Shown one piece after another: positions 39,985 to 42,990 of a stretch of 64,000 bases of DNA. Each line of letters opens with the position of its first letter. Within the stretch, counting starts at the first letter, position 1. The notes beneath the pieces were generated by a model, which worked only from the letters and a program-made list of their open reading frames with translations, was not told the origin of the DNA and ran no database searches. The translations under genes were made by a program, and so were the position numbers. Source of the stretch: Escherichia coli (GTDB lineage: Bacteria > Pseudomonadota > Gammaproteobacteria > Enterobacterales > Enterobacteriaceae). The stretch lies in the NCBI RefSeq assembly GCF_003334405.1, contig NZ_QOWM01000009.1, one strand, 5' to 3'.

Positions 39985-40980
39985 ATGAAAAAGAAAAGAC
40001 CCGTACTTCAGGATGTGGCTGACCGTGTAGGCGTGACCAAAATGACGGTCAGCCGTTTTTTACGCAACCCGGAGCAGGTTTCCGTCGCTCTACGCGGCAA
40101 GATTGCCGCGGCTCTTGATGAACTGGGCTATATTCCCAATCGTGCGCCCGATATCCTCTCTAACGCCACCAGCCGGGCGATTGGCGTCCTGTTACCTTCT
40201 CTCACCAACCAGGTTTTCGCGGAAGTATTACGCGGAATCGAAAGCGTCACCGACGCGCACGGTTATCAGACCATGCTGGCGCACTACGGTTATAAACCGG
40301 AAATGGAGCAAGAACGCCTCGAATCCATGCTCTCCTGGAATATCGACGGCCTGATCCTCACCGAACGTACCCACACGCCGCGCACCTTAAAGATGATTGA
40401 AGTGGCGGGTATTCCCGTGGTGGAACTGATGGACAGCAAGTCGCCATGCCTTGATATCGCCGTCGGTTTTGATAACTTTGAAGCAGCACGCCAGATGACC
40501 ACTGCCATTATTGCTCGCGGGCATCGCCACATTGCCTATCTCGGCGCACGTCTCGACGAACGTACTATCATCAAACAGAAGGGATACGAACAGGCGATGC
40601 TGGATGCAGGCCTGGTGCCATATAGCGTGATGGTTGAGCAATCTTCTTCTTACTCTTCCGGTATTGAACTGATTCGCCAGGCGCGGCGGGAATATCCGCA
40701 GCTGGATGGCGTGTTCTGTACGAATGATGACCTGGCGGTCGGCGCGGCGTTTGAATGTCAGCGTCTGGGGTTAAAAGTTCCTGACGATATGGCGATTGCC
40801 GGTTTCCACGGTCATGACATTGGTCAGGTGATGGAGCCACGACTTGCGAGCGTGCTGACGCCGCGTGAGCGGATGGGCAGTATTGGCGCTGAACGCCTGC
40901 TGGCGCGTATTCGTGGCGAATCTGTGACACCGAAAATGTTAGATTTAGGTTTCACCTTGTCACCGGGCGGATCTATTTAA
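39985..40980 (+). CDS. gntR: Gluconate repressor (LacI family)
   Basis: 331 aa; N-terminal HTH LQDVADRVGVTKMTVSRFL. Confidence 0.93.
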   Translation: MKKKRPVLQDVADRVGVTKMTVSRFLRNPEQVSVALRGKIAAALDELGYIPNRAPDILSNATSRAIGVLLPSLTNQVFAEVLRGIESVTDAHGYQTMLAHYGYKPEMEQERLESMLSWNIDGLILTERTHTPRTLKMIEVAGIPVVELMDSKSPCLDIAVGFDNFEAARQMTTAIIARGHRHIAYLGARLDERTIIKQKGYEQAMLDAGLVPYSVMVEQSSSYSSGIELIRQARREYPQLDGVFCTNDDLAVGAAFECQRLGLKVPDDMAIAGFHGHDIGQVMEPRLASVLTPRERMGSIGAERLLARIRGESVTPKMLDLGFTLSPGGSI

Positions 40981-41058
40981 GCCCACAAATTTGAAGTAGC
41001 TCACACTTATACACTTAAGGCATGGATGGATATTGCTTCTGATATTGTCCGGCTGGAC

Positions 41059-41089
41059 AATGTTACCGATAACAGTTACCCGTAACATT
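41059..41089 (+). promoter_or_regulatory. Tandem GntR operator sites in gntKU promoter
   Basis: aATGTTACCGATAACAgTTACCCGTAACATt, two overlapping palindromic half-site pairs ~30-60 bp upstream of gntK start. Confidence 0.7.
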
Positions 41090-41118
41090 TTTAATTCTTG
41101 TATTGTGGGGGCACCACT

Positions 41119-41646
41119 TTGAGCACGACTAACCATGATCACCACATTTACGTCTTGATGGGCGTATCGGGCAGCGGCAAATCTGCGGTCGCCAGTGAAG
41201 TGGCGCATCAACTTCATGCCGCGTTTCTTGATGGCGATTTCCTCCATCCACGGCGCAATATCGAAAAAATGGCGTCTGGCGAACCACTGAATGACGACGA
41301 TCGCAAACCGTGGTTGCAGGCGCTGAACGACGCCGCGTTTGCTATGCAGCGCACTAATAAAGTGTCGCTGATCGTCTGTTCTGCATTGAAAAAACACTAT
41401 CGCGACTTGCTGCGTGAAGGTAATCCGAATCTCTCTTTCATCTATTTGAAAGGCGATTTTGATGTGATTGAAAGCCGCCTGAAAGCGCGCAAAGGCCATT
41501 TCTTTAAAACCCAAATGTTGGTGACGCAGTTTGAAACGCTGCAGGAGCCGGGTGCGGACGAAACCGATGTACTGGTGGTGGATATCGATCAACCGCTGGA
41601 AGGTGTTGTGGCAAGCACCATTGAGGTTATTAAAAAAGGCAAATAA
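41119..41646 (+). CDS. gntK: Thermoresistant gluconokinase
   Basis: Start placed at TTG (LSTTNHDHHIYVLMGVSGSGKSAV, 175 aa); P-loop GVSGSGKS. Confidence 0.85.
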   Translation: MSTTNHDHHIYVLMGVSGSGKSAVASEVAHQLHAAFLDGDFLHPRRNIEKMASGEPLNDDDRKPWLQALNDAAFAMQRTNKVSLIVCSALKKHYRDLLREGNPNLSFIYLKGDFDVIESRLKARKGHFFKTQMLVTQFETLQEPGADETDVLVVDIDQPLEGVVASTIEVIKKGK

Positions 41647-41649
41647 GTA

Positions 41650-42990
41650 GTGACTACATTAACGCTTGTTTTAACAGCAGTAGGGTCTGTTTTACTGCTG
41701 CTGTTTTTAGTCATGAAGGCGCGTATGCACGCTTTCCTGGCTTTAATGGTGGTGTCCATGGGGGCTGGCCTTTTTTCTGGTATGCCGCTCGATAAAATCG
41801 CAGCGACGATGGAAAAAGGGATGGGAGGCACCCTCGGCTTCCTGGCGGTGGTTGTCGCCCTGGGAGCTATGTTTGGCAAGATCTTACATGAAACCGGCGC
41901 AGTCGATCAGATTGCCGTCAAAATGCTCAAATCCTTCGGTCACAGCCGCGCGCATTATGCCATCGGCCTTGCGGGGCTGGTCTGTGCGCTACCGCTGTTC
42001 TTTGAAGTGGCGATAGTTCTGCTGATTAGCGTTGCTTTCTCAATGGCGCGCCACACCGGTACGAACCTGGTGAAGCTGGTAATCCCATTATTTGCAGGCG
42101 TGGCGGCAGCGGCGGCATTTCTGGTGCCTGGACCAGCGCCGATGCTGCTGGCATCGCAGATGAATGCCGACTTTGGCTGGATGATCCTGATTGGCCTGTG
42201 TGCGGCAATTCCGGGAATGATTATTGCCGGGCCGCTGTGGGGTAACTTCATCAGCCGTTACGTTGAGCTGCATATTCCTGACGACATCAGCGAACCGCAT
42301 CTCGGCGAAGGCAAAATGCCATCTTTCGGATTCAGCCTGTCGCTGATCCTGCTGCCGCTGGTGCTGGTAGGGCTGAAAACCATTGCCGCGCGTTTTGTGC
42401 CGGAAGGATCAACTGCTTACGAATGGTTTGAGTTTATCGGTCATCCGTTTACCGCGATTCTGGTTGCTTGTCTGGTGGCGATTTACGGTCTGGCAATGCG
42501 TCAGGGCATGCCAAAAGACAAAGTGATGGAGATTTGCGGTCACGCGCTGCAACCGGCGGGGATCATTCTGCTGGTGATTGGTGCGGGCGGCGTGTTCAAA
42601 CAGGTGCTGGTTGACTCTGGCGTAGGTCCGGCACTGGGCGAAGCGTTAACCGGCATGGGCCTGCCGATTGCTATCACCTGCTTCGTGCTGGCAGCTGCAG
42701 TGCGCATCATTCAGGGTTCTGCCACCGTAGCCTGTTTAACGGCGGTAGGACTGGTGATGCCGGTTATTGAACAACTGAACTACTCCGGTGCGCAAATGGC
42801 GGCGCTGTCGATTTGTATCGCTGGTGGTTCGATTGTTGTCAGCCACGTTAACGACGCCGGTTTCTGGTTGTTCGGTAAATTTACCGGCGCGACCGAAGCC
42901 GAAACGCTGAAAACCTGGACCATGATGGAAACCATCCTCGGCACTGTCGGTGCCATCGTTGGGATGATTGCGTTCCAGCTGTTGAGTTAA
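41650..42990 (+). CDS. gntU: Low-affinity gluconate transporter (GntP family)
   Basis: 446 aa multi-TM; 3 bp after gntK stop; GTG start. Confidence 0.9.
   Translation: MTTLTLVLTAVGSVLLLLFLVMKARMHAFLALMVVSMGAGLFSGMPLDKIAATMEKGMGGTLGFLAVVVALGAMFGKILHETGAVDQIAVKMLKSFGHSRAHYAIGLAGLVCALPLFFEVAIVLLISVAFSMARHTGTNLVKLVIPLFAGVAAAAAFLVPGPAPMLLASQMNADFGWMILIGLCAAIPGMIIAGPLWGNFISRYVELHIPDDISEPHLGEGKMPSFGFSLSLILLPLVLVGLKTIAARFVPEGSTAYEWFEFIGHPFTAILVACLVAIYGLAMRQGMPKDKVMEICGHALQPAGIILLVIGAGGVFKQVLVDSGVGPALGEALTGMGLPIAITCFVLAAAVRIIQGSATVACLTAVGLVMPVIEQLNYSGAQMAALSICIAGGSIVVSHVNDAGFWLFGKFTGATEAETLKTWTMMETILGTVGAIVGMIAFQLLS

Follow-up and report, generated by a model that had tools for sequence, protein, structure and literature searches.

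The gntRKU locus

The window, meaning the whole 64,000-nucleotide stretch of Escherichia coli DNA that was analysed, contains the gntR-gntK-gntU locus of this species. The genes follow each other in this order and GntR operators lie between gntR and gntK, which is the arrangement of the GntI locus, the gntRKU operon under GntR control. Over 751 bases around the start of gntK, 5,425 of the 5,426 complete E. coli genomes matched with an identity of 95-100%, and the matching bases are annotated as gntR, gntK and gntU. The following features, all on the plus strand, are relevant here:

39985-40980, plus strand: gntR, LacI-family gluconate repressor (open reading frame and RefSeq annotation)
40990-41005, plus strand: CRP-like site TTTGAAGTAGCTCACA between gntR and gntK (consensus pattern)
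41061-41074, plus strand: GntR operator palindrome TGTTACCGATAACA (inverted repeat and pattern search)
41074-41087, plus strand: second GntR operator palindrome AGTTACCCGTAACA, overlapping the first at an offset of 13 bp (same searches)
41092-41094, plus strand: in-frame TAA upstream of gntK, at which its frame ends, leaving it open from 41095 (sequence)
41098-41100, plus strand: upstream in-frame TTG, rejected as start (sequence, pairing energy and family model)
41107-41111, plus strand: Shine-Dalgarno (SD) element GGGGG, 7 nt before the TTG at 41119
41119-41121, plus strand: gntK initiation codon TTG (sequence, RefSeq CDS start, orthologs and family model)
41119-41646, plus strand: gntK, thermoresistant gluconokinase, 175 codons and a TAA at 41644-41646 (RefSeq WP_000108330.1)
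41158-41160, plus strand: first in-frame ATG (Met14), rejected as start (sequence and pairing energy)
41650-42990, plus strand: gntU, gluconate transporter, with a GTG start 3 nt past the gntK stop (open reading frame, RefSeq and ortholog junctions)

The 175-codon reading frame from 41119 translates to a protein that begins with (M)STTNHDHHIYVLMGVSG and is identical in 175 of 175 residues to chain A of the gluconate kinase structure 1KNQ (E = 1e-115); five further PDB entries, 1KO1, 1KO4, 1KO5, 1KO8 and 1KOF, are identical as well. Residues 15-22 of this form are the P-loop GVSGSGKS (Walker A, GxxxxGK[ST]), preceded by HIYVLM. With 372.3 bits against a cutoff of 265, the protein is a member of the gluconokinase equivalog family NF008583 of NCBIfam. 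The GntK/IdnK-type subfamily model TIGR01313, which gave 241.5 bits, covers also the thermosensitive paralog IdnK/GntV (NF007336, PRK09825), but with 183.9 bits the protein stays below the cutoff of 304 for NF007336 and is therefore GntK rather than IdnK. There is no difference to GntK of E. coli K-12 (GNTK_ECOLI) in the 175-residue sequence, in the annotated TTG start or in the gene order, and it is thus the same gene. Judged by its sequence, the product encoded in the window is the gluconokinase GntK, and gluconate kinase activity is reported for the same protein of K-12 (Izu 1996 and Kraft 2002, as cited in PMC4045858).

Candidate start codons of gntK

The initial annotation had placed the start of gntK at a TTG at 41119 and had set against it an upstream in-frame ATG at 41098. 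The first of these codons indeed reads TTG and is in frame with the 175 codons of the gene. The second is no ATG: the region reads ccgtaacatttttaattc, then TTG at 41098, tat tgt ggg ggc acc act, the TTG at 41119, and agc acg act aac cat gat cac cac. The methionine at 41098 in the list of reading frames that had been used is due to the codon being treated there as a start. Downstream, a TTG at 41155 and the ATG at 41158 (codons 13 and 14 of the 175-residue form) are the next candidates in frame. As 41098 is a TTG, the choice is not one of TTG versus ATG but one between two TTG codons and the internal ATG at 41158. An initiation at 41098 would add the seven residues (M)YCGGTT, as had been stated before, and result in a protein of 182 residues (MYCGGTTLSTTNH...) in which 41119 encodes an internal leucine, whereas initiation at Met14 would yield 163 residues beginning with MGVSGSGKS.

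The three forms exist in public records. The 175-residue form with its start at the TTG at 41119 is found on at least 1000 contigs and carries the UniRef name GNTK_ECOLI. The 182-residue form, starting with the TTG at 41098, is found on 25 contigs, examples being older O157:H7 records such as ACI35719.1 of E. coli O157:H7 EC4115, and the 163-residue form, for which a start at the ATG at 41158 follows from its length, occurs on two contigs and has been named a 'shikimate kinase' in E. albertii TW07627. Each of the three candidate starts has thus apparently been chosen in some annotation pipeline. In RefSeq, the PGAP annotation of gntK maps to 41119-41646 in an identical strain and also in the most divergent strain among those listed (96.5% identity), and since this CDS begins at 41119, the reference annotation already has the TTG start. 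Izu and colleagues are reported to have sequenced the N-terminus of purified GntK in 1996. A literature search that combined gntK, TTG and start codon returned only matches from unrelated organisms, and gntK is not among the genes in the supplements of the start-site profiling by TetRP.

Pairing with the 16S rRNA

For each of the candidate starts, the nucleotides from -20 to -4 were paired with the 3' end of the 16S rRNA. The TTG at 41119 reached -8.4 kcal/mol due to the GGGGG element, while the TTG at 41098 gave +0.6 kcal/mol and the ATG at 41158 gave +1.2 kcal/mol, which is to say that neither of the latter two is preceded by an SD element. The background of the window is -2.2 +/- 2.4 kcal/mol, and about 1% of 1,676 sampled positions reach -8.4 kcal/mol; the SD at 41119 thus goes beyond what chance would give. 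It has been described that sub-optimal start codons tend to be combined with stronger SD elements (PMC5622118), and the strong SD of gntK fits that tendency. UUG begins about 3% of the known genes of E. coli, and reporter assays have given it 10-100% of the initiation seen with AUG. With its canonical start codon and an SD within 5-10 nt upstream, gntK has what is expected of a UUG gene led by an SD, and the strong SD at a spacing of 7 nt makes it an example of canonical UUG initiation without any difference in kind; unusual is only that the TTG has been retained for so long across genera.

The presumed leader together with the early coding region (41068-41170) does not fold better than shuffled sequences (z = +1.04), and there is thus no hint that the start might be occluded. 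A regulatory RNA structure around the gntK start had been considered and was rejected for the same result.

Conservation of the start among orthologs

The comparison with orthologs included 80 loci of Enterobacteriaceae from species-representative genomes, which were the best 80 of 340 relatives and therefore represent close relatives only (Escherichia, Citrobacter, Salmonella, Klebsiella, Raoultella, Enterobacter, Kosakonia, Kluyvera, Leclercia, Lelliottia and others). The proteins are 90-99% identical and each of them aligned from query residue 1. The codon that aligns to 41119 is TTG in 77 of the 80 species and ATG in the three others (Yokenella, Trabulsiella and Buttiauxella), and it is never CTN or TTA. 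The start position has thus been kept, and in these 80 species its codon has been exchanged solely with another start codon. As the nearest neighbours of Buttiauxella all have TTG, the ATG must have arisen at least twice. Among the leucine columns of gntK there are 15 that are conserved in at least 76 of the 80 loci, and all of them mix synonymous codons, the commonest codon reaching at most 95% and TTG being the majority codon in none. Unlike all these 15 columns, 41119 has no leucine synonyms, which is characteristic of an initiation codon and argues against the internal leucine that a start at 41098 would make of it.

An SD of -5.6 kcal/mol or stronger precedes the aligned start in all 80 loci. 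In the three species with ATG, the SD has -5.8 to -6.5 kcal/mol as compared to a median of -8.4 kcal/mol in species with TTG, which with n = 3 is anecdotal. The columns from -21 to -1 are mostly conserved at 0.34-0.69 only, with the exceptions of a purine run from -12 to -8, where the columns are purine-only or nearly so and a G at -10 is found in 80 of 80 loci, and of a C at -2. From +1 to +14, conservation is 0.82-1.00 and variation is found at third positions; from +1 onwards there is almost no variation at the first two positions of the codons, codon 6 being the single variable residue. This shift of the pattern at the codon indicates that a coding-type conservation begins exactly at 41119. 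The C at -2 (position 41117 in the window) is an observation of its own, as it is invariant in 80 of 80 loci while its neighbours at -3 and from -4 to -7 vary freely.

Upstream of the aligned start, the sequences of the orthologs differ in length and content. The TTG at 41098 does begin the longest open reading frame, its form has been annotated in the O157:H7 records, and a TTG at -7 codons is kept in Escherichia and in some species of Citrobacter and Kosakonia. A candidate at this position is, however, present in just 14 of the 80 loci, and 36 of the 80 have no in-frame ATG, GTG or TTG at all before the nearest upstream stop. In none of the 44 loci that do have such a candidate is its SD stronger than that of the aligned start. 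The distance from the conserved operator half-site CCGTAAC to the start varies from 18 to 87 nt over the 80 loci and takes all three residues modulo 3, so that the leader keeps neither length nor frame. The longer N-terminus, the conservation of which had been named in the initial annotation as the argument that would speak against 41119, is therefore not conserved as far as these sequences are concerned, and together with the lacking SD this makes translation from 41098 highly improbable. In the divergent E. coli strain N96, the upstream TAA is affected by a 1-bp insertion and a substitution (aligned to 41092-41093), from which it can be concluded that even within the species there is no constraint on the bases directly 5' of the upstream TTG; RefSeq keeps the gntK start of N96 at the same TTG.

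It could also be considered that 41119 is the main start and that only few ribosomes begin at 41098 in E. coli, giving a minor isoform of 182 residues. A TTG is a competent start, as the reporter assays mentioned above demonstrate, no stop interrupts the frame from 41095 on, and 41098 probably lies within the leader if transcription begins near the operators. But as this codon has neither SD nor conservation, such a dual initiation is very improbable too, and a minor product of this kind would be lineage-specific and probably negligible.

Family models and the start at Met14

The family models lead to the same position. Profile positions 1-174 (of 177) of NF008583 align to residues 8-181 of the 182-residue form, and as residue 8 corresponds to the TTG at 41119, the seven extra residues lie outside of the model. 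The TIGR01313 alignment begins at residue 18 of the 182-residue form, i.e. three residues before Met14, so that a start at the ATG at 41158 would cut into the core. The strand before the P-loop belongs to the core of P-loop NTPases, and a protein that begins with Met14 would have lost it. No canonical ATG precedes the one at 41158 in this frame, and the 163-residue form has been annotated in the E. albertii record, but NF008583 begins already 13 residues before it, there is no SD, and codons 2-13 are conserved as protein in the 80 species, with variation at third positions, which means that they are translated. Initiation at Met14 is hence exceedingly improbable, even less probable than the two readings that involve 41098. 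The 182-residue and the 163-residue records are best read as errors that are due to mis-called starts.

With the codon identity, the strength of the SD, the orthologs, the RefSeq annotation, the begin of the NF008583 model and the identity with the solved structure 1KNQ all in agreement, gntK is almost certainly translated from the TTG at 41119, as had been proposed in the initial annotation. The structure has to be taken with some caution in this list, because the crystallized protein was recombinant and built to the annotation, and it is thus not an independent proof of the native start of GntK.

Control region and initiation at the TTG

The GntR operators had been described as immediately upstream of gntK, which agrees with the two palindromes at 41061-41087 that end 32 nt upstream of the start. 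Both are conserved among the orthologs as well, and they match the overlapping GntR sites, functional and spaced by about 13 bp, that have been reported upstream of E. coli gntKU (PMC4052901, citing Tsunedomi 2003). The pattern T.TGA-N6-TCACA is found within 260 nt upstream of the gntK start in 78 of the 80 orthologs, and based on the consensus the element at 40990-41005 is a putative CRP site. A consensus promoter scan of the gntR-gntK interval gave no sigma-70 match on the plus strand, and gntK is not among the entries of the genome-wide transcription start site supplements of Kim 2012, which is why promoter and transcription start are here placed by the positions of the operators and the CRP-like site.

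Initiation at 41119 would then proceed as follows. Transcription presumably begins from a promoter overlapping the two GntR operators, and the CRP-like site, if it is bound by CRP, would help this promoter. The G-rich SD at 41107-41111 would place the 30S subunit 7 nt upstream of the TTG in a leader that is predicted to have no notable secondary structure, and the TTG would be read as formyl-methionine by the initiator tRNA. The resulting protein would have 175 residues, beginning in the cell most likely with MSTTNHDHH, and would contain the P-loop GVSGSGKS after strand beta-1.

Weak start codons in gntK and gntU

The long retention of the TTG raises the aspect of selection on the start codon itself. 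At the four-fold degenerate sites of gntK, the mean pairwise difference in the 80 species is 0.446, and only at 1 of 48 sites is the major allele found in at least 77 of 80 species. A control with all substitutions is not fair, since a T-to-C exchange would abolish initiation, and the fair control is therefore one with transversions only, in which 12 of 48 four-fold sites (25%) are as conserved as the gntK T. A specific selection for TTG was dropped for this reason, as it is not significant against the transversion control, and from these comparisons a slow neutral turnover is compatible with TTG having persisted instead of ATG or GTG.

gntU begins with GTG or TTG in 80 of 80 species and with ATG in none of them (75 located by script, and five from printed junctions). 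The gntK stop and the gntU start are arranged in the geometries -4 (GTGA), -1 (TAGTG) or +3, the latter being that of E. coli (41644-41652 in the window). In the 27 species with a TAGTG overlap, a single G-to-A exchange would result in TAATG, and this has never been seen. In a crude control, 2 of 14 four-fold sites with a G majority also lack A, and the absence of ATG in gntU is thus suggestive but not significant. Both cistrons of gntKU keep weak non-ATG starts, and this could reflect a selection that throttles the translation of kinase and transporter, but such a selection is rather unlikely, and the neutral-site controls back it weakly. If it were true, the throttling might for example limit the accumulation of 6-phosphogluconate or the membrane load once the repression by GntR is lifted.

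Inside the first 20 codons of gntU there is a terminator-like hairpin at 41675-41710 (11 pairs, a loop of 4, followed by a T-run). It could attenuate the read-through from gntK into gntU, but one terminator-like match in this region is about what shuffled sequences give.

Significance of the gntK start

The TTG start of gntK is correct but ordinary, and it is already known. TTG initiation is textbook biology, and the finding has little significance beyond annotation hygiene. What has been added here is the correction of the codon at 41098 and an 80-species case against the 182-residue and 163-residue forms. The start codon and its SD are stable across the family, which makes them useful for gluconate sensors that are based on gntK and for the tuning of GntK expression.
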